From an uncultured bacterium (GTDB lineage Bacteria; Electryoneota; Electryoneia; Electryoneales; Electryoneaceae), in assembly GCA_964552465.1 (NCBI GenBank), contig CAZKGR010000019.1, positions 1,619 through 65,618 on the forward strand: DNA of 64,000 nt, written 5' to 3'. The position numbers and the translations under genes are program-made. How positions within the stretch are numbered: position 1 is the stretch's first letter; each line of letters starts with the position of its first letter. Of the stretch, positions 4,982-59,384 are shown piece after piece. Under the pieces are notes generated by a model. That model did no database searches. It was not told where the DNA came from and worked only from the letters and a program-made list of their open reading frames with translations.

Positions 4982-6370
4982 ATGGAGTCTTTCCACCTGG
5001 GGCTGGTGGGAGCAAAACATTCGTGCCATCCGCAACTGGTAGCTCAGCTCGAGGACGCCGGCTGTCGTGTCGACTGCTTGCCGGAATCAAAAAAGAAGGC
5101 GCTGGCCAAGCTCAATGAACTGCAACCTGACGTCGCGCTCTACATATACAACAAAGACACTTTCCGCGAAGCCGCAACCATCCTGAACGATGATCAACAG
5201 CACAGCCCCGTACCTTGGGTGCTGATTGTTGAAGATGAAACAGCGGTCAACAAGCTTCCTACCCAGTCTTTACACACGCACGGTATCCTCTTCTATCCAT
5301 TCCAGCCGCAGCAGATATCTGCGATGATTGAGCTCGCCATTCACCTGCACCGTAAAGAACGGTTAAAAGATGTAATATTATCCCATTACGTGGAAAGCCT
5401 GCGCAATGTGAATGAGGCGGTCATCCTGTCCGATCCCGGGGGGCAGGTACTGTTCGTGAACGAAAAAGCGATGCTGTTGACCGGATATGAGGATGCGAAC
5501 AAACGCCAGGTGGATCAAATTTTCCAAATTGAAGGCAACAAGAACTCCGGATCGAAACACCCCGTCTTACACACAATTCAAGAGTCGGATAACGGACACA
5601 GCTCATACCGCACTAGCCTTGCAAAACGAAACAAGGAAGCGTTACCGATTCAGTACCAGGTGAAACGAATCGAGAAAGAGAATGAAGTTCTTGGCGCATG
5701 CGTGCTGTTCCACGAAATCAAGGCACGTGCGACTGACCAATTAAACATCAGTCTGAATGAAACATCCAGCGACGAAGCCGCCAAGGAAGTTGTGGAAAAG
5801 GTCAAGCTGGCCCGTCCGGACGAAAACCGGGAAATGCGGATTCAGGTACGAACTTTTGGCGAATTTTCGTTGATGGTCGAGGGCAACCGCATCGAAACGA
5901 ACAAGTGGCGCTCGAAGAAAGCGCTCGATGTCTTCTCCTACCTGCTGCTTCATTACAGCCAGCCGGTGCACAAGGAAGTGCTGATCGATTTCCTGTGGCC
6001 GAATTTGGACACGCACACCGGCAATCGCCGCTTGCTGAACGCCGTCTCCGAGCTGCGCAAGTACCTCGAACCGGACGCGAAACGTTACGCCCGCAACGCC
6101 TTTGTCCGCCACGAATCAGGCGTCTACCGTCTCGATTTCGGCGAGAACGTGTACATTGACACGTTGGTCTTCCGTGAACTGGTCCGCAATGGCGACTACC
6201 AGTGGGCGACCAACCAGCAACGTATGGCGCGCACCTTTTACCTCGAAGCGTTGCAGCACAAGGACGGTCAGTTCCTCCCGCGCTATCTGTACGAACGTGA
6301 ATTCGAAGAAGCGCGTGAACAGTACGAGATTACCGAAAGTCGGCTCCGCGAACGCTTGGAACAGACCTGA
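4982..6370 (+). CDS. Transcriptional regulator, paralog of 2046..3413 (pseudo-receiver + PAS + SARP-type winged helix + BTAD-like)
   Basis: Same architecture and near-identical C-terminal winged-helix segment (RTFGEFSLMVEGNRIETNKWRSKKALDVFSYLLLHYSQPVHKEVLIDFLWP...LRKYLEP...GVYRL). I moved the start from 4943 to the ATG at 4982 (MESFHLGLVG aligns with MDRLNLAVTG of the paralog). A GGAGG SD sits 8 nt upstream. Confidence 0.8.
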   Translation: MESFHLGLVGAKHSCHPQLVAQLEDAGCRVDCLPESKKKALAKLNELQPDVALYIYNKDTFREAATILNDDQQHSPVPWVLIVEDETAVNKLPTQSLHTHGILFYPFQPQQISAMIELAIHLHRKERLKDVILSHYVESLRNVNEAVILSDPGGQVLFVNEKAMLLTGYEDANKRQVDQIFQIEGNKNSGSKHPVLHTIQESDNGHSSYRTSLAKRNKEALPIQYQVKRIEKENEVLGACVLFHEIKARATDQLNISLNETSSDEAAKEVVEKVKLARPDENREMRIQVRTFGEFSLMVEGNRIETNKWRSKKALDVFSYLLLHYSQPVHKEVLIDFLWPNLDTHTGNRRLLNAVSELRKYLEPDAKRYARNAFVRHESGVYRLDFGENVYIDTLVFRELVRNGDYQWATNQQRMARTFYLEALQHKDGQFLPRYLYEREFEEAREQYEITESRLRERLEQT

Positions 6371-6390
6371 TATTCGAGACTTGAGATGCG

Positions 6391-6430
6391 AGATACTTCG
6401 CGGGGACGCCTTTTTATGAGGGCGTCCCCG
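6391..6430 (+). terminator. Rho-independent terminator
   Basis: cggggacgcc TTTTTATGAG ggcgtccccg followed by TTTCATT. Confidence 0.7.
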
Positions 6431-6502
6431 TTTCATTATACATGCCCGTGTGAATCCATGAAATGATTCGCAGGATGATCAAACGCTTCTACGTTCGTCA
6501 AT

Positions 6503-6533
6503 CCGCGATAGCCGTCTTTGACGGCTATCGCGG
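6503..6533. promoter_or_regulatory. Perfect 13-bp inverted repeat (ccgcgatagccgt-ctttga-cggctatcgcgg) about 150 bp upstream of rmlA
   Basis: Seen directly in the sequence. No U-tract follows, so it may be an operator or an RNA hairpin. Confidence 0.4.
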
Positions 6534-6684
6534 GCACCATGCACTAGAGGCGCCGAACGTATCTCACACCCCTCACCCTAAGAGTTGCCAAGCCACCCGG
6601 ACAAAAGAGAGATCCTTCGCTACGCTCAGGATGACGCATAGAATCCCCTATATTCCACAATCGATCATCAACCCGGACATGCCC

Positions 6685-7569
6685 ATGAAAGGCATCATCC
6701 TCGCTGGCGGCAGCGGATCACGTCTGTTCCCCGCGACACGCAGCATCGTCAAGCAACTCCTGCCCATCTACGACAAGCCGATGATTTACTACCCGTTATC
6801 GGTGCTGATGCTGGCGAATATCCGCGAGGTGTTGATCATCTCGACACCGGAAGACACTGATCGCTTCGAAGCTCTATTCGGGGATGGGTCGCAGTTCGGG
6901 ATGCGCTTCGAATACGTAGTCCAGCCCGCGCCGGAAGGCTTGGCGCAAGCGTTCCTGTTAGGTGAGGATTTCCTCAACGGCGACGACGCGGTGCTGGTCC
7001 TCGGCGACAACATTTTCTATGGGCACGGGCTGGTAGAAACTCTCGTCCGAGCCTGTAGACGGGTTGAACAGGACCGCCGTTCAGTCGTTTTCGGTTATGC
7101 CGTGCAAGATCCGCAACGGTATGGCGTGGTCGAGTTCGATGTGACCGGGCGCGTCCTGTCTATCGAGGAGAAACCGTCCGCGCCGAAGAGCAATTATGCC
7201 GTCGTCGGACTGTATTTCTACACCAATGACGTTGTCGAGATCGCGAAGAACGTGAAACCATCCGAGCGGGGGGAGCTGGAGATCACTACAGTCAACCAAA
7301 CGTATCTCGACATGGACAAGCTGGATGTCGAGCTGTTGGGACGCGGGTACGCGTGGCTGGATACTGGCACACACGAGAGTCTGCTGGAAGCGTCGTTGTT
7401 TGTTCAGACCATCGAAAAACGGCAGGGGATGAAAATTTCGTGTATCGAAGAAATCGCGTACCGAAAGGGGTGGATTGACATTGACCGACTGAAGGCGCTT
7501 GCCGAACCGATGGCAAAGAACGAGTACGGGCAGTATCTGCTTCGTCTCGTGGACGGAAAAACTGTGTAG
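6685..7569 (+). CDS. rfbA: Glucose-1-phosphate thymidylyltransferase (RmlA/RfbA)
   Basis: [39 protein letters not shown]...[10 protein letters not shown] is the canonical RmlA N-terminus. I trimmed the start from the 6463 ORF to the ATG at 6685 (about 295 aa, the typical length). Confidence 0.9.
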
Positions 7570-7835: not shown

Positions 7836-8071
7836 AATCTATCTCCTGTCGTGCAAAGTTACCCCCAACTGTATGCCATGTTAGATGCGGAACAAGGCGT
7901 GCGTTGTCCCTGAAAGAGTGGCAATATCCCGAATTGGAGACTTGATAGTTATATGACACCTTGGAGTATTCATCCGAACCTCCCTGCTGAAAAAGCCTGC
8001 CTCGGCGGACAAACCCGCAGGGGCACCTGATCGTTGTATCTTCCAGTCCAAACAAGTACACGTGGATTATC

Positions 8072-9178: not shown

Positions 9179-9229
9179 GACCTGAGATTCGAGAGACTAG
9201 AGACTAGAGACAAAAGACAAGAGACATTC

Positions 9230-9922
9230 ATGTCCCACCGAATACTGATAGTCGAAGACGACGAAGCGATTGCACTCGGACTGCAGATAAACTTGCAGCA
9301 CGACGGTTACAGCACTGAACTCGCTGTGGACGGCGAGGCCGCGTTGGTAAAAATCAGCGGGTGGAAGCCCGACCTGGTGCTGCTGGACGTTATGCTACCA
9401 AAACTAAGCGGATTCGACGTCTGCGAGCGAGTGCGGGACAGCGGTAATCGTGTTCCGATCCTGTTTCTCACAGCGAGAGATTTGCTCGACGACCGTCTTC
9501 AAGGGCTCGAGTTGGGTGGTGACGACTACATCACCAAACCGTTCTCGATGGATGAGCTGCGTGTTCGGATCAAGGCGATGCTGCGGCGACAAACGTGGTA
9601 CGAGGTCGTTCCGGATGTAGGAAGCAGCATCAACTTCGGCAGTAACACGGTAGACCTGTCTGCGTATCGCGCGACAACGCGCGAAGGTAAGGTTATGCTT
9701 ACCCAAAAAGAGACCATGGTACTCAAGTTACTAGTCGAGAACGAAGGCAAGGTGATTGATCGAGGCACGATTTTGAACAAAGTGTGGGGTGAGGAGATCT
9801 ACCCCAGCGGACGGACGGTTGACAACATCATCCTGAATCTTCGGCGACACTTTGAGGACGATCCGAAGAATCCACAACACATTTTCACCCACTACGGAGC
9901 CGGGTACTCGTTCCAGAGGTGA
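9230..9922 (+). CDS. OmpR/PhoB-family response regulator
   Basis: Receiver ILIVEDDE...LVLLDVMLP...YITKPF plus a C-terminal winged helix (LTQKETMVLKLLVENEGKVIDRGTILNKVWG). It lies 52 bp after the kinase gene. Confidence 0.9.
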   Translation: MSHRILIVEDDEAIALGLQINLQHDGYSTELAVDGEAALVKISGWKPDLVLLDVMLPKLSGFDVCERVRDSGNRVPILFLTARDLLDDRLQGLELGGDDYITKPFSMDELRVRIKAMLRRQTWYEVVPDVGSSINFGSNTVDLSAYRATTREGKVMLTQKETMVLKLLVENEGKVIDRGTILNKVWGEEIYPSGRTVDNIILNLRRHFEDDPKNPQHIFTHYGAGYSFQR

Positions 9923-13700: not shown

Positions 13701-13932
13701 TCTATATATGCCCCAGACATTTATGCTGGGATGAATCACCACCTGCGTGGCCGAGGGCATGTACATTGTGCCTGTGATAGACCGTGAAACGGCTATAGCG
13801 GATTATCCACAAGCCCAAATGTGTCGGTCATCCCTGCTGGCAGAGCCCGCAGGGGCACCGTACATGCTTCAACCAACAGGAAACCCGGGATTGAAACCCC
13901 GGGCTATACATATCAGAGAATTTGCACGGTTC

Positions 13933-15123
13933 TTAGAACTCAGCGCCGGTATACACCAACCGGATGAACCGCGGGCGGTATATGTCCGCGTAAGTGAAAT
14001 GATCCCAGAAATCCAGGCAATTGACATTGTAACTAATCAGCAATTCACCCGGTTCAGACAAACTCGGATGAGCCTTCGCGTTGTAGCACCAGGCGTCTGC
14101 GTCGGGGAAATCGTCCGGGACGGTGCTGGTATAAATGGGGTGCGTGATGCTCCACGGACCGCGAGGACTGAGCCCAATACGGAAGCCGATGGTACGGGTG
14201 ATCGTGTCTACGGTGAAAATCATGATGTAGCGGTTGTTCGGTAACGGTGTTACACTCATTTCCGATGACACCCGATTTGTCAAGCGCGCCGCCTGGGTGA
14301 AATCCGCCACCCACTGCTGTCCGTCAAAGAAACGCCACTGGTCTAAATCTGTGAACTGTTCTTCGGGCACACGCGCCACCAGCGAGTACTTGTCATACGG
14401 CACTTCTTCCAACCCGTAGATGTAAATGAAACCGTCAGGATTCGGTGCCCCGGCACGCTCAGTGTTCGCCATCAGCCCCGCTGTGAAACTGATTTCACCA
14501 CGATCTCCTTCCGCGGGTGCGTGAAACGGTAGTTCGTATTGCTGGTAATTGTTGAACGGTGGGGATGAGCCCGCCGGAATCCGAATGATAGCAGTGCCTG
14601 TGCGCACGAACCACAATTCCTGATCGCTGCGCATGCGCAACGCCAGGATATAGACAGCGTCCGGCAGCGAGATTCCGTCTCCCAGCCAATACCACTCGCC
14701 GGGCTGGCTGTTCGGTGTGTCGGGCACGAACATGGACGCCGCATTACCACCCTGCTGCCGGTAAATGAAATGGATGCTGTCTGGATCGACAATACCCGGT
14801 GGCAGGTAAGCCATGGTGTTGTTGATCATTGTAGTCCCGCCCAAGCGATTGCCCTGATCATCCACCTCGCCGATGAAAGTGTCGCTGAACACGAACAGAG
14901 TCTGGTTGGTGTTATGGGCACCGAAATGATCGTTGCCATCAACCGGGATGGAATAGATGCCGTCCGCGCCGGACCAGCCGGAATGCTGGTCAAACATCGC
15001 GTCCCATTCCGGTGCTTCCTCCACATACCAGTTCTGGGCGCTGGATACGCCGAAACCCATCAGAAGGAAGACAACGAGCAATAAAGCAGCAATTCGTGGC
15101 ATCTTGAAATCCTCGACAAACAT
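13933..15123 (-). CDS. Secreted protein, uncharacterised family (paralog 1 of 4; no T9SS CTD)
   Basis: Signal peptide then the conserved AQNWYVEEAPEW...SGW.GADGI.SIP...FVFSDTFIGEVD...PDTPNS.PG.WYW..DGI.L...YNAKAHP.LSEPGELL.SYNVN..DFW.HF..ADIYRPRF. The profile is beta-rich; the fold or glycoside-hydrolase affinity was not verified. Confidence 0.8.
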   Translation of the reverse strand: MFVEDFKMPRIAALLLVVFLLMGFGVSSAQNWYVEEAPEWDAMFDQHSGWSGADGIYSIPVDGNDHFGAHNTNQTLFVFSDTFIGEVDDQGNRLGGTTMINNTMAYLPPGIVDPDSIHFIYRQQGGNAASMFVPDTPNSQPGEWYWLGDGISLPDAVYILALRMRSDQELWFVRTGTAIIRIPAGSSPPFNNYQQYELPFHAPAEGDRGEISFTAGLMANTERAGAPNPDGFIYIYGLEEVPYDKYSLVARVPEEQFTDLDQWRFFDGQQWVADFTQAARLTNRVSSEMSVTPLPNNRYIMIFTVDTITRTIGFRIGLSPRGPWSITHPIYTSTVPDDFPDADAWCYNAKAHPSLSEPGELLISYNVNCLDFWDHFTYADIYRPRFIRLVYTGAEF

Positions 15124-15140
15124 GTCAGTTTGCTAACCAG

Positions 15141-16607
15141 CTATTTCACAACGGTAAACTTCTGAGTTGGAATGTTGTCCGCACCGTCAATTTGCAGGAA
15201 ATATGTCCCGGACGAGAACAGGTTTGCATTGAGCGACACGGTTTGTAGACCGGCGGATAGTTCCCCCCGGTGCAGGGTTTCAACCAGCCGTCCCATGATA
15301 TCATACACCGCAATGTTTACATCGGCCGTCATTGGCAGATCAAAGTTTAGCACCGCGGACGCATTAAATGGATTCGGCGCGATCACAGGGGCAGGAGTTA
15401 ACGTGATTTGCGATCCGATTTCGGCTCCTGGATTGTTCAGGATGCCTTGATCAAGAATCAGCTTCACGAACCGCGGGTGGTATATATCCGCATTGCTGAA
15501 ATGCGCCCAAAAATCGCTACAGTTGATGTTGTAACTGACCAGCAGCTCGCCCGGTTCGGACAGATGCGGATGCGCCTTCGCGTTGTAAGTGGTGATCGGG
15601 AGATCTGGCCAGATATCCGGTTCAGGCACCGTGTAGAAGACGTGATAGTCGCCCCACGGCCCCCACGGGGTCGGTGCAAGACGGAAAGCCAGCTCACGCC
15701 CAATCGTTCCGACCTGAAATACAAGGATATAGCGCCCATCCGGCAGTGGCGTGACACTCATTTCATGCGACACTCGATTAGTAACCCTGACAGCATCATT
15801 CATGTCATCCGACCACTGCCCCTGTCCGGCATAGAAACGCCACGCGCTGGGAATGGGGAAATGTTCTTCCGGCACGCGTGCGACTAGCATGTGCTTGTCC
15901 AGCCACGCATCTTCAGCACCGTAGATATAAATGTAGCCATCGGGGAAGTATGCGCCGGCACGTTCTGTGTTCGGCATAATCCCAATCGAGAACCTGCGTG
16001 TCCCGCGGTCGCCATTTTCAGGCAGATGGAACGGCAGATCGTATTGCTGATAATCGTTAAATGGTGGGCGATCGTGGTATGGCATACGAACCATCGCCGT
16101 TCCGTCGAGTGCAAATCCTCCTCCCATCGGCGTCCGCATGCGCCAGACGATAAAATAGACAGCGTCCTCGAGCGCGATTCCGTCACTAGGCCAATACCAC
16201 GTTCCCGGCGGTGCATTGGGAGTGTCGGGGACAAACATCGACTGTGGATTGTTGAACGTGCCCTTGTAGTAGAACTCAGACGTTATCGGATGAGGTCCAT
16301 CAGGCGGCCACCACGCTAAAGTGTTGTTGATCATGTGCGTATTCAGGCGGTTGCCGTTATTGTCGACTTCACCGATGAAGGTGTCGCTGAAAATGACTAG
16401 AGTATTATTCGTGTGATGTGCGCCGAATTGTTCGTTACCGTCCAATGGGACGGTGAAGATGCCGTCAGCGCCAGTCCAGCCATAATCACGGGTGACGACG
16501 CTATTCCAGCCCGGTGCGAGTTCCGTGTGCCAGTTCTGGGCACACACCAATCCGGAGTTGGCCAGGACCACGGTCAGGACGAATGCCGCACAAGTAGTTC
16601 TTTGCAT
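15141..16607 (-). CDS. Secreted protein, same family (paralog 2 of 4) with T9SS C-terminal sorting domain
   Basis: Same conserved core plus a C-terminal about 80 aa APNPFNASAVLNFDLP...GTYFLQIDGADNIPTQKFTVVK (Por/T9SS CTD). Confidence 0.8.
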   Translation of the reverse strand: MQRTTCAAFVLTVVLANSGLVCAQNWHTELAPGWNSVVTRDYGWTGADGIFTVPLDGNEQFGAHHTNNTLVIFSDTFIGEVDNNGNRLNTHMINNTLAWWPPDGPHPITSEFYYKGTFNNPQSMFVPDTPNAPPGTWYWPSDGIALEDAVYFIVWRMRTPMGGGFALDGTAMVRMPYHDRPPFNDYQQYDLPFHLPENGDRGTRRFSIGIMPNTERAGAYFPDGYIYIYGAEDAWLDKHMLVARVPEEHFPIPSAWRFYAGQGQWSDDMNDAVRVTNRVSHEMSVTPLPDGRYILVFQVGTIGRELAFRLAPTPWGPWGDYHVFYTVPEPDIWPDLPITTYNAKAHPHLSEPGELLVSYNINCSDFWAHFSNADIYHPRFVKLILDQGILNNPGAEIGSQITLTPAPVIAPNPFNASAVLNFDLPMTADVNIAVYDIMGRLVETLHRGELSAGLQTVSLNANLFSSGTYFLQIDGADNIPTQKFTVVK

Positions 16608-16703
16608 CTACATCTCCGCTCACTATCGACACAATGGAGAAACGAATTCACAGAATCGGCTTCGCGGTCACCATTGCTATATAGATAATTAACCTGCCTA
16701 TCG

Positions 16704-17876
16704 CTAAAACCGATTCCCCAAATAAATCAGTCGCACAAATCGTGGACGGTAGATTTCGGCGTGGTCGAAATGCGCCCAGAAATCATGAACGCTGACGTTA
16801 TAGCTGACCAGAAGCTCGCCCGGCTCGGACAAGTGTGGGTGTGCTTTGGCGTTGTAACACCACACTGGCATCCCGATATAGTCATCCGGTTCAGGGCAAT
16901 GATAGAATATGTGATACTCACCCCATGGTCCCCATGGAGTTGGACCTATTTTGAACGCGAGATCCCGCCCAATGGTGTCGAGTTGGTAGACCACGATGTA
17001 GCGTCCATCGGGCAGCGGCGTCACACTCATTTCTGGCGAGACGCGTCCCGCAGTGCTGACCGCGTTGCGGAAATCAGATATCCAACCATCCTGTCCGGCC
17101 CAGAATCGCCAGGCGTTGCCGTCTGTAAACTGTTCTTCGGGAACGCGGGCAACCAACAACCGTTTATTCATCGGAACTTCTTCAACCCCGTAGATATAGA
17201 TGTATCCATCCGGGAAAGGAGCGTTCGCACGTTCAGTATTGGGCATGATTCCGACACCGAAACTTATGCTACCACGAGTTTCATTGGCTGGTTCAAACAA
17301 ATCCAGTTCCCACTGCTGGTAGTGGTCAAACGGTGGTCGGGCGGTTGCTGGTAAACGGAGCATCGCGACTCCGTCACGGGCAAAACCAACCTGCTGGTCA
17401 GGTCGCATCCGCCAAGCGAGGAAATAAACCGAACTGTCAAGAGCGATTCCATCACTGGGCCAATACCAATGGTCAGGCTCAGAGTTGGGGGTATCAGGGA
17501 TAAATGTCGTAGCTGGAGAGCCGTCATCTTCAGCGTAATAGAACTGCGCGGTTTCAGGGTCAGGCACCCCAGGCGGCATCCATGCAAGAGTGTTCTTAAC
17601 CATTTGCGTGCCGGGCAAACGGTTCCCAGCGCTATCAACTTCGCCGATGAATGTGTCGCTGAAGACGAACAGCGTGTTCACGTAATTATGCGACCCGATG
17701 GTTTCATCACCGTTCAGTGGGATAGAAAAAATTCCATCGGCCCCGGTCCATCCTGAAGTACGGTGAAACACAGCACTCCACTCAGGGACTTCTTCGACAT
17801 ACCAGTTTTGTGCGTGGGATATGCCGAAGCCCGTCAGAATGAAGACCACGATCAGCGATGTTGCAGTTCTGGACAC
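16704..17876 (-). CDS. Secreted protein, same family (paralog 3 of 4; no CTD)
   Basis: Signal peptide plus the conserved core. Ends ...IYRPRFVRLIYLGNRF. Confidence 0.8.
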   Translation of the reverse strand: MSRTATSLIVVFILTGFGISHAQNWYVEEVPEWSAVFHRTSGWTGADGIFSIPLNGDETIGSHNYVNTLFVFSDTFIGEVDSAGNRLPGTQMVKNTLAWMPPGVPDPETAQFYYAEDDGSPATTFIPDTPNSEPDHWYWPSDGIALDSSVYFLAWRMRPDQQVGFARDGVAMLRLPATARPPFDHYQQWELDLFEPANETRGSISFGVGIMPNTERANAPFPDGYIYIYGVEEVPMNKRLLVARVPEEQFTDGNAWRFWAGQDGWISDFRNAVSTAGRVSPEMSVTPLPDGRYIVVYQLDTIGRDLAFKIGPTPWGPWGEYHIFYHCPEPDDYIGMPVWCYNAKAHPHLSEPGELLVSYNVSVHDFWAHFDHAEIYRPRFVRLIYLGNRF

Positions 17877-17913
17877 GTGTAATCCTCGTTATAACATCGG
17901 TTAGCTGACCAGC

Positions 17914-19380
17914 TTACTTCACGACAGTAAATCTTTGAGTTGGAGTGTTCTCCGCTCCTCTGACTTGCAAGAAATACGTTCCTGACGCGAAACGGCTGCC
18001 GTTCAGCGACAACGCTTGTTGTCCCGCTGGCAGCATTCCGGAATACAGTTGCTGGACCATGCGGCCAGCAATGTTGTAGATCGCGACATCCACTTTCCCT
18101 GCCTGCGGCAAATCGAATGTGATGACGGCGGACGCATTGAACGGGTTGGGCGCGATCAGCGGGGCGGGATGTACGGTCAATGTCATCCCTTCGGCGAATG
18201 TCGCTGGCATCAGAGCCGCGGGATTGTAGACGAGATTGATAAACCGCGGTCGATAGATATCGGGATAATCAAAGTGCGCCCAGAAATCAACATTATTTAC
18301 TGAATAACTCATGAGCAATTCGCCGGGTGCGCTGAGGTGCGGATAAGCCTTGGCGTTGTAAACGAAGGTGCCCGCCAGCGAATCCGGCTGCGGACAAGTG
18401 TAGAGTTCGTAGTATGGTGACCACGGTCCGACCGGACTCGCCCCGACCCGCGCAGCGACACTCCTGCCGACAGTGTTCAATTGAAAGATCATCAGGAAGC
18501 GACCGTCGGGCAGCGGACTCACACTAAGATCCATACCGCACTGCCCAGTCACCGGCACGGCGTCACTGAAATCCGGCACCCAGGCGAACCCATTCCAGAA
18601 GCGCCACGCGCTCAGTGTTGCGATTTCATCCTCGGGCACTCTTGAAACAAGCACGCGCTTGTTCTGTGGATTCACTTCGGCCTTGACGCCGTAGATGTAG
18701 ATATAGCCGTCGGGGAAGGGTGCACCGGAGGTGGTTGTGTTCGGCATTATGCAACCGCCGAAAGACTTTCCCCACATATAGTCGTTCGCCGGTGCCCAGA
18801 ATGGAATCTCATGCTGAATGTGATCTTCGAACGGCGGCAACGATCCGGGCGGAATCTCAAGCACTGCAGAACCAACCAATGTTGGTTCCATGCCTTCGAC
18901 AGTCACACGGTCAGTAAAGAGATATATGGTGCCGTCGGAAATGATTCCGTCTTTAAGCCAGTATTGATCACCGGGATTTGAGTTCGGCGTGTTCGGAATG
19001 AACATCGTTATCGGATTGTCGTTACCGTCAGTTCCCCAGATGAACTCGATTGTCTCAGGATCGGGCGGGCCAGGAGGCATTATGGCAAGCGTGTTGTGGA
19101 CCATTTGCGTGCCCGGTTGACGCTGACCGTTTACGACCTCGCCGATGAATGTATCGCCGAAGGTGAACATCGTGTAATCACTCAGGTAGCCGTTGGGTTG
19201 CTCTAGCCCCGACAACGGAAATCCGAAGGTGATATCCGCTCCCGTCCAGCCTGAAGTCTGGGCGAACAACGCGGTCCACTCCGGCGCTTCCTCGACATAC
19301 CAGTTCTGGGCGTGAGCCGCGTAGAAACCGGTAAATACGAGTACTGTCAATACTATGGAAACCGTTATTTGTCGCATCAT
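17914..19380 (-). CDS. Secreted protein, same family (paralog 4 of 4) with T9SS CTD
   Basis: Conserved core plus APNPFNASAVITFDLPQAGKVDVAIYNIAGRMV...GTYFLQVRGAENTPTQRFTVVK. Confidence 0.8.
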   Translation of the reverse strand: MMRQITVSIVLTVLVFTGFYAAHAQNWYVEEAPEWTALFAQTSGWTGADITFGFPLSGLEQPNGYLSDYTMFTFGDTFIGEVVNGQRQPGTQMVHNTLAIMPPGPPDPETIEFIWGTDGNDNPITMFIPNTPNSNPGDQYWLKDGIISDGTIYLFTDRVTVEGMEPTLVGSAVLEIPPGSLPPFEDHIQHEIPFWAPANDYMWGKSFGGCIMPNTTTSGAPFPDGYIYIYGVKAEVNPQNKRVLVSRVPEDEIATLSAWRFWNGFAWVPDFSDAVPVTGQCGMDLSVSPLPDGRFLMIFQLNTVGRSVAARVGASPVGPWSPYYELYTCPQPDSLAGTFVYNAKAYPHLSAPGELLMSYSVNNVDFWAHFDYPDIYRPRFINLVYNPAALMPATFAEGMTLTVHPAPLIAPNPFNASAVITFDLPQAGKVDVAIYNIAGRMVQQLYSGMLPAGQQALSLNGSRFASGTYFLQVRGAENTPTQRFTVVK

Positions 19381-21243: not shown

Positions 21244-22365
21244 ATGCACGACCCGCGTCACGACAAGCTTGCAAACCTGCTCGTCAACTATTCCTGCGAA
21301 ATTCAGCCCGGTGAAAAGGTGCTGATTGAGTGTTACGATACACCGGTCGAGTTCATCGATTCGATCGTCAAGGCTGTTTATGCGGCGGGCGGCCATCCGC
21401 TGCTCGAACTGAAACACAACAAGCTGATACGTACCATGCTCAACGGCGCATCCAAGGAATCGCTGGCGGCGATCCAGGATAGCGAACTGCATCGAATGAA
21501 GAACATGGACGCGTTCATCGGTGTTCGCGGTGTGTCGAACGCGAAAGAGTTGAGCGATGTGGAGTCTGACAAAAACGCGCTGTGGGGGACCGAGGTTTTC
21601 CAGCCGGTGCACGCGAACGAACGTGTGCCGAATACCAAGTGGGTTGTTCTGCGTTACCCGACTCCGGCGATGGCGATGATGGCAGACATGAGCACCGAAG
21701 CGTTCGAGGACTATTACTTCAAAGTGACCTCCGACGTTGACTACAAGAAAATGTCTGAAGCGATGACCCCGGCAGCTGATTATCTGCGTAACGCCGACCA
21801 GGTCCACATCACCGGCCCCGGCACCGATCTCAAATTCTCGATCAAGGGTATCGGAGCGGTCAAATGCGACGGACAGCGCAACATCCCGGACGGCGAAGTC
21901 TACTCCTGCCCGGTGCGCGACTCGGTGAACGGTACAATTCGTTACAACACACCGTCCAGCTACCATGGGTTCACGTTCAAGGACATCGAACTGACTTTCG
22001 AGAACGGTAAAATCGTCAAGGCGACCGCCAACGACACCAAGCGCATTAACGCGATCCTCGACACGGACGAAGGCGCACGCTACATCGGCGAATTCGCACT
22101 CGGCTGCAACCCGGCGATCGACTTCGCGATGGATGAGATCCTGTTTGACGAAAAGATCGGCGGCAGTTTCCACTTCACGCCGGGCAACGCGTACGACGAC
22201 ACCGATAACGGTAACCGTTCGGCTGTGCACTGGGACCTGGTTCTGATTCAGACGCCGGAATATGGCGGCGGCGAGATTCACATGGACGGCGAACTGATCC
22301 GCAAAGACGGCCTGTTCGTTCATCCGGCGTTCGAAGGATTGAATCCCGACAAGTTGATGGGGTAG
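21244..22365 (+). CDS. Aminopeptidase, M29 family (AmpS/PepS/aminopeptidase T-like)
   Basis: Full-length similarity pattern of thermophilic M29 aminopeptidases (LANLLVNYSCEIQPGEKVLI..., ...YIGEFALGCNP...GGSFHFTPGNAY...). The long antisense ORF 21211..22626 is a shadow. Confidence 0.85.
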   Translation: MHDPRHDKLANLLVNYSCEIQPGEKVLIECYDTPVEFIDSIVKAVYAAGGHPLLELKHNKLIRTMLNGASKESLAAIQDSELHRMKNMDAFIGVRGVSNAKELSDVESDKNALWGTEVFQPVHANERVPNTKWVVLRYPTPAMAMMADMSTEAFEDYYFKVTSDVDYKKMSEAMTPAADYLRNADQVHITGPGTDLKFSIKGIGAVKCDGQRNIPDGEVYSCPVRDSVNGTIRYNTPSSYHGFTFKDIELTFENGKIVKATANDTKRINAILDTDEGARYIGEFALGCNPAIDFAMDEILFDEKIGGSFHFTPGNAYDDTDNGNRSAVHWDLVLIQTPEYGGGEIHMDGELIRKDGLFVHPAFEGLNPDKLMG

Positions 22366-22376
22366 ACTTGATATGC

Positions 22377-22446
22377 CCACGACATTTATGTCGTGGATGA
22401 ATTGACATCGTGAACTTGGGATAATCCCTGACATAAATGTCAGGGG
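22377..22446. promoter_or_regulatory. Pair of related palindromes cccaCGACATTTATGTCGtgg and ccctGACATAAATGTCAggg (candidate operator pair)
   Basis: Seen directly in the sequence. The two are 50 bp apart (centre to centre), between the aminopeptidase and acetyltransferase genes. Confidence 0.45.
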
Positions 22447-22584
22447 CATGTGAGAACCAATATTTACTTGCCACGGGCGTTTGTCCGTGGCATTTTCTTG
22501 TCGGGTTCCCCATCGAAGCCTGATCATTGGATGATCCCTGTTGGCGAAGCCCGCAGGGGCACCATGAAAACTGGAGATCACCAG

Positions 22585-23223
22585 ATGTCGGAAGAAGTAC
22601 GCGTTGTCCCGATGCAAGAGGAACACATCGAAGAGCTGGTCGATGTGTATTTACAGGCATTCCACGATCGCCCCTCAGGTAAGATGGGGCGCCGGTATGT
22701 GCGCGCGTTCTTCCGCTGGTTCATAAGCTACGAGGACGGTATCGCACTGGCAGCCGTCGAGGGCGAGACACCGCTCGGCTTCGGTGTCGGAGCGGTGATG
22801 GGCTACCAGAAGCCGATGAACCGCGACCTGTTCTGGACTGTATTCTGGTCAATTCTCCCCCGCCCACAGCTGTGGCTGAACAAAGATGTCGTAAACAATA
22901 TTACCCTGCGAATCAAGGTTGCGCTGGGCTTGTACCGTAGACCAGCGAACCTGCCATCAATCACCTACCCGCAGCCGTGTGTTTCGTATGTCGGGGCGGG
23001 AGTGTCGGATAAGGCGCGCGGAAAACGGGTCGGCAAGAAGATCTATACCGCCTTCACCGCCGCCTGCGAGAATTCAGACAAGTACCGTGCGATCCGTGGT
23101 ACGGTTCATGAGTCAAACGCACCGGTGAACAAGATACTTGGCGGGCTCGGATGGAAAGAGATCGCGAAAAAGGATGCCGGCTACCTCGAATGGGCGAAAA
23201 TTTTCGATGAAATGGTTGAGTGA
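22585..23223 (+). CDS. Probable GNAT-family N-acetyltransferase
   Basis: N-terminus VRVVPMQEEHIEELVDVYLQAF is typical of GNAT; weak overall. I chose the ATG at 22585 because of a GGAGA SD 7 nt upstream. The ORF track started at 22450. Confidence 0.45.
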   Translation: MSEEVRVVPMQEEHIEELVDVYLQAFHDRPSGKMGRRYVRAFFRWFISYEDGIALAAVEGETPLGFGVGAVMGYQKPMNRDLFWTVFWSILPRPQLWLNKDVVNNITLRIKVALGLYRRPANLPSITYPQPCVSYVGAGVSDKARGKRVGKKIYTAFTAACENSDKYRAIRGTVHESNAPVNKILGGLGWKEIAKKDAGYLEWAKIFDEMVE

Positions 23224-28719: not shown

Positions 28720-29295
28720 CACAGCAACACTGTTACCCGGCGTGGAGCGATGGAAACGGATGTTTTTTGTTTGACCGCTCTCGCACCACGCGCGGGTCAT
28801 AACTTCTTGCCAGCGGTTGAGATTAGTCAACGTCGGCACACTTTTGCCTGGCGTAGCGCAGCGGATTCGGACGTTATGTTTGTTTGACCGTCCCCACGCC
28901 ACGCACAGGCCTGATTTCTCGCCAAACGTCGAACTTTCAACGTCGGCACACTTTTGCCTGGCGTAGCGCGGCGGATACGGACGTTGTGTTTGTTTGACCG
29001 TCCCCGCGCCACGCACAGGCCTATACTTATCGCTTGTCAAGCGAAGCGTCTTCTGATGATGACCGGATTCAAGCGATTGACTCAAAAGTTGCCTGGCGTG
29101 AACCGATGGAAACGGGGTCCAGTCGCCGAGTGTTGACCGTCCACGATCCACGCTCAGGCCTGAGATCTCTCTCCAGTCGAACTATATCCTGTCAAACAAC
29201 AGAACTGCTAAACTTTTGCCCGGTGCGGCGCGACGGTTACGGACCGTTGTTAGTGTTTGACCGACCCCGCACCACACACGGGCCAATTCCAATCC
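28720..29295. repeat. Tandem array of about five degenerate 110-140-bp palindromic units (core ...cttttgcctggcgtagcgc-N-cggac-N-tgtttgaccgtcc-ccgcgccacgcacaggcc)
   Basis: Unit cores (ttgaccg) sit at 28771, 28884, 28994, 29133 and 29257. The 5' arm gcctggcgtagcgcgg pairs with the 3' arm ccgcgccacgcacaggc in each unit. The array is intergenic between the two beta-helix paralogs. Confidence 0.75.
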
Positions 29296-29329
29296 TTCCA
29301 GATTACGCCTGGAAGGAGTTATTTCTTGA

Positions 29330-45606: not shown

Positions 45607-45807
45607 ACAGCTCGGATTTTGGATCATGAACCGCGGGTACTTAAGGCCGTTGTAGACGCAAGGAGAGCGGAGAGTCAAGCGAGCGAAAAATGAGAGACAA
45701 ACTCCTGAAAAGCTTGTAAACAGACACTTACGGGTAGTAGTATTATTTCCGACAGCCACTGGTGTAGAAGGCCAGGGCACCTAGCTCTACGGGAAGTGAA
45801 TAGAATC

Positions 45808-46014
45808 ATGCCGCAAGGTACCGTGAAGTGGTTCAATGAAGCCAAGGGATTTGGTTTCATTGAGATGGAAGATGGCCAGGATGTGTTCGTTCACTTCAGT
45901 GCCATTGAAGGCTCCGGTTTCAAAACCCTCAAAGAGGGCGAACCGGTAGAATTCGAACTGCAGCAAGGACAAAAGGGCCCGGCCGCAGGTAACGTGAGGC
46001 GGCTGAGCGACTAA
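45808..46014 (+). CDS. csp: Cold-shock protein (CspA family), copy 1
   Basis: [18 protein letters not shown]...VFVHFSAI carries RNP1/RNP2 motifs. Confidence 0.9.
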
Positions 46015-46069: not shown

Positions 46070-46280
46070 TGGATAACGGTGTTAAGGCTTACCCGTTGAT
46101 CAATCTAATTCCTAGTTATAAATGATAATTAGGTAGGTGTGCTGCGGGATAGCGGGCCGGTCGAGAGCCAAAAGGGATATATATTTGGAAATTCCGTCTA
46201 ATTGGTCGTACTATTACGACTGATAGCCTCGGCTAGTCTGTCGGGGCGCTTTTTTCGTTTTACAGGAAGTGAAAAGAATC

Positions 46281-46487
46281 ATGCAGCAAGGTAAAGTGAA
46301 GTGGTTTAATGAAGCCAAGGGATTTGGTTTCATCGAGATGGAAGATGGCCAGGATGTGTTTGTGCATTTCAGCGCCATTGAAGGCAACGGCTTCAAGACT
46401 CTGAAAGAGGATGAGCCAGTTGAGTTCGAACTGCAGCAAGGACAAAAGGGCCCGGCCGCAGGTAACGTGAGGCGGCTGAGCGAGTAG
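46281..46487 (+). CDS. csp: Cold-shock protein (CspA family), copy 2 (tandem duplicate)
   Basis: [41 protein letters not shown]. About 90% nucleotide identity to copy 1, extending into the 5' leader. Confidence 0.9.
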
Positions 46488-58868: not shown

Positions 58869-59384
58869 CGTGTTCTCTCTCGCCTTCGTTTGAATGAGTA
58901 TCAGCTCGGCAATATACACGGAGGATACGGTCTTTGCTGAGTCACGAGCAGAGCGCGTGAGCCGTTCCACGAGACGAGATGTGAGAGGCGAGACGGTAGA
59001 GATGTACATGCCTGTGTTAATCCACATCGTGGTTCACAGGGATTAGGTACCAGGTAGGACAAAGGGGACACCTACGTCCCATTCCGCCGAGCTTCTTTGT
59101 GGCACCACTCTCCAATGCTTCAAGTCTGATGACCATTTTCACCGACAGTTCTGGGACGAAGATGTCCCCGATTCGACCATCCCGGCTGGCACAGCCCGCC
59201 AGAGGCACACTCTGACAAACATCATGAAATCCGACTTGGCGGAGACCAAGTCGGGCCACCTATTACAGGCAGCATCCGTTGACCACAAGGCCGAGAAACG
59301 GTGTGTGAGCCCGTTGACACTCGCAACAACACCGGGATACATTTCTGATTCTCGTTTAGCGCGCATTCACATTGCAAATACCCG

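Follow-up and report, generated by a model that had tools for sequence, protein, structure and literature searches.

Palindromic repeats in DNA of an uncultured marine bacterium are very probably REPs of a REP/REPIN–RAYT system

The recurrent GACAT-NN-ATGTC palindromes examined here are very probably REPs, with the pair at 22371–22451 forming a REPIN-type doublet, and they are best understood as parts of a REP/REPIN–RAYT system and not as an operator. The window, which is the whole 64,000-nt stretch of DNA that was analysed, comes from an uncultured marine lineage outside the Proteobacteria. The system is of a known kind, without the classical GTAG tag. The first-pass annotation had left two readings of these sites side by side, i.e. 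an operator for a dimeric regulator or a small palindromic repeat family, and it is the second that was borne out, in that the repeat is present in high copy number in related genomes, is mostly intergenic there and flanks a gene for a REP-associated tyrosine transposase (RAYT). For the annotation of the window, a misleading lead is thereby cleared away, with no support for a hidden regulon operator and with the site at the response-regulator gene (9223) probably coincidental.

Within the window, two extended palindromes occupy one intergenic region, as the annotation had described, with a core-to-core distance of 49 nt. They read cccaCGACATTTATGTCGtgg at 22377–22397 (arms CCCACGACAT-TT-ATGTCGTGG) and ccctGACATAAATGTCAggg at 22426–22446 (arms CCCTGACAT-AA-ATGTCAGGG). 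The core GACATNNATGTC has exact matches at 9223, 22381 and 22430. In 100 shuffles of the window, 0.15 matches were expected and three or more were never seen (0/100), so the earlier estimate that such a core is rarer by chance than once per 64 kb holds. The one-base-deleted copy reported at 13710–13729 is likewise present. Approximately ten more bases on each side are conserved in both of the local sites and in the 13706 site (ATATGCCC... / ...GGATGAAT); indeed, ATATGCCCnnGACATTTATG has exact matches at 13706 and 22371 and a one-mismatch copy on the opposite strand at 22432–22451. Since the second site is the reverse complement of the first, with shared flanks, the three sites are copies of one asymmetric unit of ~32 nt (family A) rather than bare palindromes. 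The fourth site, at 9223, was also claimed for the group. It does match the core exactly and does overlap the ATG of the response regulator; however, the site (aagaGACATTCATGTCccac) has a stem of only 5 bp and none of the flanks of the unit, and thus its membership in the repeat family did not stand. With 0.15 matches expected per window, and a probability of ~0.14 for one chance hit, this site is kept apart from the others as what is, judging from its sequence, probably a chance match.

Altogether, the window, i.e. 64 kb of its own genome, holds three family-A copies and at least two copies of a second family, B, all of them intergenic (Table 1). The stem of the first family-A unit begins 12 nt past the stop codon of an aminopeptidase gene; its sequence matches exactly the unit variant (CCCACGACATTTATGTCGTGG) that is most frequent in a related genome, MAG87 (JAHLLB01). 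When folded as single-stranded DNA, the doublet forms one long hairpin (−18.9 kcal/mol, z = −5.0). The whole window gave no Rfam match at gathering thresholds, and permissive E-values applied to 22300–22650 returned only spurious miRNA-precursor models, reflecting the long hairpin.

Table 1. Coordinates of repeat units and associated features in the window, and of the two RAYT genes of a related genome (loci L110 and L088).
Feature	Coordinates	Strand	Sequence and remarks
Family-A REP unit 1	22371..22402	-	+ strand = ATATGCCCACGACATTTATGTCGTGGATGAAT; 9-bp stem, 22377–22385 pairs with 22388–22396
Family-A REP unit 2	22420..22451	+	Inverted relative to unit 1; GATAATCC-CTGACATAAATGTCAG-GGGCATGT; stem variant CT..AG
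Convergent REP doublet (REPIN-like)	22371..22451	.	Cores 49 nt apart; spacer not conserved; one long hairpin
Family-A REP singlet, decayed	13706..13737	-	3' stem arm shortened by a 1-nt deletion; ATATGCCCCAGACATTTATG-CTGGGATGAATC
Family-B REP unit	22530..22563	+	GATGATCC-CTGTTGGC-GAA-GCCCGCAG-GGGCACC; between the terminator and the GNAT ATG (22585)
Family-B REP unit	13826..13859	+	GGTCATCC-CTGCTGGC-AGA-GCCCGCAG-GGGCACC
12-bp-stem hairpin with the same outer frame	6501..6538	+	ATCC-GCGATAGCCGTC-TTT-GACGGCTATCGC-GGGCACC; one copy seen
B-like element with a long loop, divergent or degenerate (tentative)	7982..8027	+	CCCTGCTG...CCCGCAGGGGCACC
Degenerate B'-like unit (tentative)	59179..59208	+	ATCCCGGCTGGCACAGCCCGCCAGAGGCAC; orthologous intergenic regions in MAG87 and bin.59 hold other REP units
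Core match, probably by chance	9223..9234	.	GACATTCATGTC; over the response-regulator ATG; without the CCC/GGG clamp and without the ATGC / GGATnATCC flanks
Intrinsic terminator of the aminopeptidase gene	22469..22502	+	GCCACGGGCGTTTGTCCGTGGC + T-run; context, outside the repeat; kept in relatives without REPs
RAYT-A	L110, ~5036–5605	+	NF047646 83 bits; transpos_IS200 23 bits; 3 family-A units upstream and 2 inverted downstream
RAYT-B	L088, within the 6191–6802 ORF	-	NF047646 88 bits; transpos_IS200 21 bits; flanked by 6 family-B units and, across the gene, by 10 inverted ones

A scan of 185,579 species, with one genome per species and both strands read (596 Gb), returned at least 114 stretches with the pattern GCCCNNGACATTTATGTCNNGG, and, among the matches listed, 107 of the 114 fall in only three unclassified MAGs, namely CAJVXH01 (DRR093004_bin.59, here bin.59), JAHLLB01 (MAG87) and CAXXKJ01. 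By our own arithmetic, approximately 17 matches to an 18-base pattern are expected by chance in a search of that size. The seven matches listed from unrelated genomes fit chance, with the free NN stem positions mostly unpaired. The three MAGs are relatives of the genome sampled by the window, sharing 70–80 % nucleotide identity with it across syntenic genes, and the aminopeptidases of all four fall within one 90 %-identity cluster. When one mismatch in the core is allowed, ~750 kb of the three MAGs yields 283 family-A copies on many contigs. Conservation among these copies extends over ~32 nt and drops sharply to background on both sides, giving the consensus c[A/G]TGCCC[AC|CA]GACATTTATGTC[GT|TG]GGATnATCC; with the CT..AG variant of the window included, the unit reads cATGCCC[AC/CA/CT]GACATTTATGTC[GT/TG/AG]GGATnATCC. 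Thus, the unit has the size and stem-loop structure of a REP, with a 9-bp stem and a 2–4-nt loop within ~32 nt. There are three stem variants (AC..GT, CA..TG and CT..AG), all of which keep the pairing; in ~96 % of copies, the variable positions 3 and 4 are Watson–Crick paired (C-G or A-T), although the search pattern left both free. That the variants preserve pairing suggests that selection acts on the hairpin, as opposed to an invariant sequence contacted by a protein. Neither GTAG nor CGTC is conserved as a tag in the flanks of the consensus (c[A/G]TGC and ATnATCC); the GTAG at 22362–22365 belongs to the context of the stop codon and is not conserved in other copies. Three copies, L027 ~111 and L038 ~5914 (both in MAG87) and L008 ~5449 (in CAXXKJ01), have the left flank gaaagtaaataactgac in common. 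L027 and L008 share the right flank too, and two species therefore seem to have kept a REP at the same ancestral site, whereas L027 and L038 share the left flank only.

The pattern search and the check for intergenic position that the first-pass annotation had proposed were thus run on related genomes, where the high copy number is joined by a marked bias in location. Based on crude longest-ORF gene calls that cover ~85 % of bases, 84 of the 107 clusters (~79 %) lie outside of coding sequence and 23 within it, and the repeats are therefore predominantly extragenic. The genes flanking the clusters have near-random orientations, with divergent genes on either side of many copies, and with respect to transcription the units are oriented without bias (19 vs 27). 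Nor is there a preference for promoter-proximal positions, and units are found as often at the 3' as at the 5' ends of genes. The median distance from a cluster is 116 nt to a gene 3' end vs 194 nt to a 5' end. Stop codons in particular are not favoured, the distance from cluster to stop codon being at most 20 nt in 9 of 127 cases.

Family A is arranged as 86 singlets, 39 direct tandem arrays, nine clean convergent doublets and eight mixed clusters. Doublets do not predominate over singlets as expected of REPINs (nine clean doublets vs 86 singlets), in a count based on loci picked by a fixed, near-exact core, by which decayed partners would be missed. Where neighbouring units are inverted, however, the arrangement is strikingly uniform; 18 pairs are convergent vs one divergent, and 17 of the 18 convergent pairs have cores 47–52 nt apart (16 at 47–49 nt, with a mode of 48), the remaining one being at 72 nt. 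The doublet of the window, at 49 nt, has the typical spacing. The spacer sequence differs between doublets. Hence, as in a REPIN, there is an inverted pair of REPs with a characteristic spacing and a predicted single hairpin. The tandem arrays, some of them with 5–10 units, reiterate the unit together with an array-specific spacer at periods of 47–130 nt. Since the spacers within one array are near-identical and not unique, the arrays are tandem duplications, and a CRISPR-like nature was rejected. A separate short repeat family, GAGATCCTTCGC[NN]CGCTCAGGATGAC, occurs once in the window (6609–6635) and also lies within the spacers of bin.59 arrays of family A (L036 7012–7443; L056 5347–5373).

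Another major facet of the system is its association with transposase genes. An ORF search of the examined MAG DNA revealed two proteins resembling Y1 transposases, both in bin.59, which are designated RAYT-A (L110) and RAYT-B (L088). Both match Pfam Y1_Tnp ('Transposase IS200 like') and exceed the 80-bit cutoff of the NCBIfam equivalog model NF047646 (REP_Tyr_transpos), while falling short of the 55-bit cutoff of transpos_IS200. The HUH motif and the catalytic tyrosine are conserved in the two, H61, H63 and Y139 (YIHRNP) being invariant, and the best match among solved structures is TnpA_REP of E. coli (4ER8; E = 2e-9, over partial stretches). Each gene is flanked by inverted copies of its own REP, family A in the case of RAYT-A and family B in the case of RAYT-B. 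The RAYT-B orthologue of MAG87 (P0003, L165) is similarly situated, with three reversed and five forward family-B units around the gene, and the RAYT-B gene of a further genome, DRDN01 (L166), is likewise flanked by family-B units. RAYTs have been identified by an over-represented flanking 16-mer (Bertels et al., PMC5581495), and the 16-mer flanking RAYT-A occurs 143 times in the examined bin.59 DNA vs a median of one for random 200-nt windows. RAYT-B lies between cdaA and yfhO in both MAG87 and bin.59 and, on the short DRDN01 contig, directly downstream of cdaA. This conserved position in three genomes would fit a single-copy, vertically inherited RAYT, as RAYTs are described to be (PMC5581495).

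RAYT-A has been seen only in bin.59 in the examined data. MAG87 has family-A units whose stems are identical to that of unit 1 of the window, yet its examined DNA holds only the RAYT-B orthologue. The window itself lacks a RAYT gene, as judged by a search with a probe sequence and then with the actual RAYTs; across the window and all of the examined MAG DNA, only L110 and L088 matched. No close RAYT of the window's own population appeared in the protein collection or in a metagenome scan. That scan, done with an alignment of the RAYTs, returned 45 loci with at most 38 % identity, except for two fragments of ~30 residues, and none of the loci has family-A or family-B units. A protein search with RAYT-A alone found only itself. 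Given that no RAYT was found in the window or from its own population, an active partner in this genome is putative.

Family B has a different hairpin within a familiar setting. Its module at 13826–13859 and 22530–22563 is (G)ATnATCC-CTGYTGGC-RRA-GCCCGCAG-GGGCACC, in short form ATCC-CTGCTGGCRRAGCCCGCAG-GGGCACC, and the same repeat flanks RAYT-B. When family A is read on its other strand, it becomes GATnATCC-CAGACATAAATGTCTG-GGGCA, indicating that an outer frame is common to both families and that it is the hairpin that differs. A third hairpin class, C (CCCGACnAGCAAGCTnGTCGGG), has the same frame, which is also seen in the repeats that surround a more distant RAYT (L168). The single-copy hairpin at 6501–6538 is, tentatively and on the strength of its sequence, probably another class of the same superfamily. 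Matches to ATCCC-N8-30-GGGGCA number five in the window vs 0.51 expected. A single element of ~150–190 bp joining A and B was considered from the comparison of 13706–13859 with 22371–22563; it was rejected because conservation of the A unit ends ~10 nt past the stem and because the A and B modules occur independently in relatives. The upper stem and the loop vary between classes and the frame is common to at least three well-populated ones (A, B and C). Furthermore, two RAYT paralogues in one genome, each with a different hairpin class, suggest that recognition may combine the shared frame, as a cleavage tag, with a paralogue-specific hairpin. Described REP superfamilies are defined by unpaired GTAG or CGTC tags (PMC3733652). 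The repeats studied here may form a superfamily with a tag of its own, in which the constant frame 5'-GATnATCC ... GGGCA(C/T)-3' with its CCC/GGG clamp would be a third tag beside those two, a proposal that we make tentatively and with the balance lying somewhat against it. If true, an uncultured marine lineage that is not proteobacterial would have a REP superfamily with its own tag, and with it would come a natural system for dissecting RAYT specificity.

The locus of the doublet allows for a direct comparison with relatives. On one side of the doublet is the stop codon (TAG, 22363–22365) of a gene for a Peptidase_M29 aminopeptidase, and on the other an intrinsic terminator (22469–22492 plus a T-run), so that the aminopeptidase transcript very probably includes the doublet in its 3' UTR. 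A terminator scan of the locus called only 22469–22492; the REP units are followed by GGATnATCC and no T-run, and so they do not qualify as intrinsic terminators. A promoter in the doublet spacer (TTGACA ... TGGGATAAT) was considered and rejected, the gap between −35 and −10 being ~12 nt and the spacer not being conserved among doublets. In CAXXKJ01 (L169), MAG87 (L170, L171) and the bin.59 lineage (L172–L174), the orthologous aminopeptidase loci keep the coding end and stop codon, and those of CAXXKJ01 and bin.59 also keep the terminator of the window (GCCACGG...CCGTGGCATTTT). None of these loci (L169–L174) has the family-A doublet of the window, which would be a gain at this locus. The bin.59 locus lacks the family-B unit too and has ATGCCGGAAGAAGTA ~25 nt past the terminator, a layout that places the start of the downstream GNAT gene of the window at the ATG at 22585. 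The start of this GNAT-like gene varies between gene callers (230 aa vs 212 aa), with the longest ORF running from 22450; the longer gene models run through the family-B REP. At the position matching the family-B unit of the window, CAXXKJ01 has a diverged B-like hairpin, which suggests an older, vertically inherited copy. REP content also varies in the intergenic region at 59.0–59.4 kb, where the sets differ among the window, MAG87 and bin.59. The aminopeptidase locus is invariant in the population to which the window belongs, with five identical contigs. In two shorter contigs from this population, the sequence breaks off within a unit (at 22399 and 22445 of the window), which is typical of repeats and explains the assembly breaks at these positions.

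Three other explanations of the palindromes deserve consideration. That a dimeric factor, e.g. one of the neighbouring OmpR-type or SARP-like proteins, binds the GACAT-NN-ATGTC duplex to control adjacent genes was the proposal of the first-pass annotation, and it draws on a perfect inverted repeat with the length usual for sites of dimeric helix-turn-helix proteins, on the two copies in one intergenic region and on the exact core over the response-regulator start codon. Yet that last copy, the sole one near a regulator start codon, is the one without the family flanks. The local doublet is located in a 3' UTR, ahead of the terminator, and not at a promoter, and it is missing from orthologous loci with the same genes. 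Across the relatives, there are hundreds of copies, with tandem arrays of up to ten units and copies at contig ends; gene 3' ends are as frequent as 5' ends, without promoter preference, and units are unbiased in orientation among flanking genes of near-random orientation. The stem positions co-vary, and units flank transposase genes. The operator proposal is thus unsupported, and we consider it extremely unlikely. A different role, in RNA, has a precedent, in that E. coli REPs are reported to protect upstream mRNA from 3'–5' exonucleases or modulate translation termination. A reading of the repeats as primarily host-kept RNA elements of this type, acting as 3'-UTR stem-loops with their spread being secondary, would find support in the window doublet, which is very probably transcribed, lies between stop codon and terminator with the stem of unit 1 only 12 nt past the stop codon, and folds strongly as RNA (−59.7 kcal/mol together with the terminator, z = −5.3); moreover, clusters are somewhat nearer to 3' than to 5' ends. 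On the other hand, the units have no orientation bias with respect to transcription, only nine of 127 distances to a stop codon do not exceed 20 nt, divergent genes flank many of the copies, the same gene pair in relatives does without the doublet, and the association with RAYTs is left unexplained. As a main function this is very improbable, and such effects are compatible with the REP/REPIN–RAYT reading as a side effect; the doublet may influence the stability of the aminopeptidase mRNA, which would be a by-product.

The remaining alternative, that the units are ends of IS200/IS605 elements or their miniature derivatives (PATE/MITE), moved by a classical TnpA(IS200) and not by a RAYT, is scarcely credible. 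The flanked proteins do match Y1_Tnp, and the ends of such elements also have subterminal hairpins. However, both proteins pass the REP_Tyr_transpos model and fail transpos_IS200 (23 and 21 bits vs 55), their best relative in the PDB is TnpA_REP and not the TnpA of IS608 or ISDra2, and the gene for RAYT-B, instead of being multi-copy, is single and has a conserved place on the chromosome of three genomes. No tnpB was seen beside the genes, and the 32-nt repeat is without IS-like left and right ends.

The favoured REP/REPIN–RAYT reading would operate as follows. Each unit, with its 9-bp stem-loop, a CCC/GGG clamp at the base and the frame 5'-GATnATCC[stem-loop]GGGCA(C/T)-3', would form a hairpin in single-stranded DNA, by analogy with the REP/RAYT systems of E. 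coli and Pseudomonas. A dedicated HUH/Y1 RAYT, for which each genome would have one gene with inverted REPs around it, would recognize, cut and rejoin the hairpin, with the outcome that units, fixed-spacing doublets and tandem arrays would spread through intergenic DNA. We infer that the RAYT is the mobilizing enzyme, that the conserved ATCC / GGCA frame functions in place of a classical GTAG tag and that the genome of the window carries a RAYT outside the window.

Besides the REPs, the window has several other repeats. Four tandem non-coding units of ~110–135 nt at 28732–29296, sharing the blocks TTGCCYGGYG...GGAWACGG and TGTTTGACCG..CCCGCRCCACGC..GGNC, have no Rfam match even at E <= 1 and might represent small-RNA genes or promoter regions present in several copies. 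A 245-nt direct repeat with 88 % identity corresponds to two paralogous 72-aa ORFs (45796–46014 and 46269–46487) for putative cold-shock proteins, which would explain the unusually high nucleotide identity to the locus L050. Most of the long direct repeats in the window stem from four tandem paralogous minus-strand genes at 13933–19380, the last of which (17914–19380) has DUF5005, DUF4185 and Por_Secre_tail domains.

The repeats described here document a REP/RAYT system in an uncultured marine lineage, with a non-GTAG frame and several hairpin classes. They should be of modest use for work on REPIN–RAYT evolution and on target recognition by RAYTs, and leave the current understanding unchanged. 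As in the REP/RAYT systems of E. coli (REP/BIME-YafM) and of Pseudomonas and Stenotrophomonas (PMC3733652, PMC3479197), there is an imperfect palindrome of ~30 nt in hundreds of mostly extragenic copies, together with a Y1/HUH transposase gene flanked by inverted REPs and several REP classes per genome, each with its own RAYT. The clusters also resemble those of Di Nocera et al. (PMC3733652), comprising singlets, inverted dimers and tandem units reiterated with flanking DNA. Unlike classical REPs, these have no GTAG or CGTC, their conserved unpaired ends being GATnATCC and GGGCA(C/T), and the RAYTs have little sequence similarity to TnpA_REP of E. coli. The hosts differ as well, since, unlike E. 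coli and Pseudomonas, they are uncultured marine bacteria outside the Proteobacteria, having proteins with type IX secretion sorting domains (Por_Secre_tail), and related MAGs carry the label 'Bacteroidetes bacterium' in two sources. With IS200/IS605 elements and their palindrome-associated miniature derivatives, the system shares the Y1 HUH fold and a DNA hairpin as the recognized structure, and it departs from them in its failure to match the IS200 equivalog, in a single-copy gene at a conserved locus and in the lack of left and right IS ends. In relation to the REPINs of Pseudomonas, singlets and direct arrays outnumber inverted doublets here, whereas most clade-I REPs are in doublets (PMC3116915). 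Nonetheless, the likeness to the SBW25 REPINs (Bertels and Rainey 2011, PMC3116915) is extensive, encompassing two inverted REPs at a fixed spacing (47–49 nt here; 71 or 110 nt in SBW25), a spacer less conserved than the REPs, a doublet predicted to form a long hairpin in single-stranded DNA or RNA, ordered tandem clusters, and a RAYT flanked by the same repeats, with an over-represented, abundant flanking 16-mer (PMC5581495).
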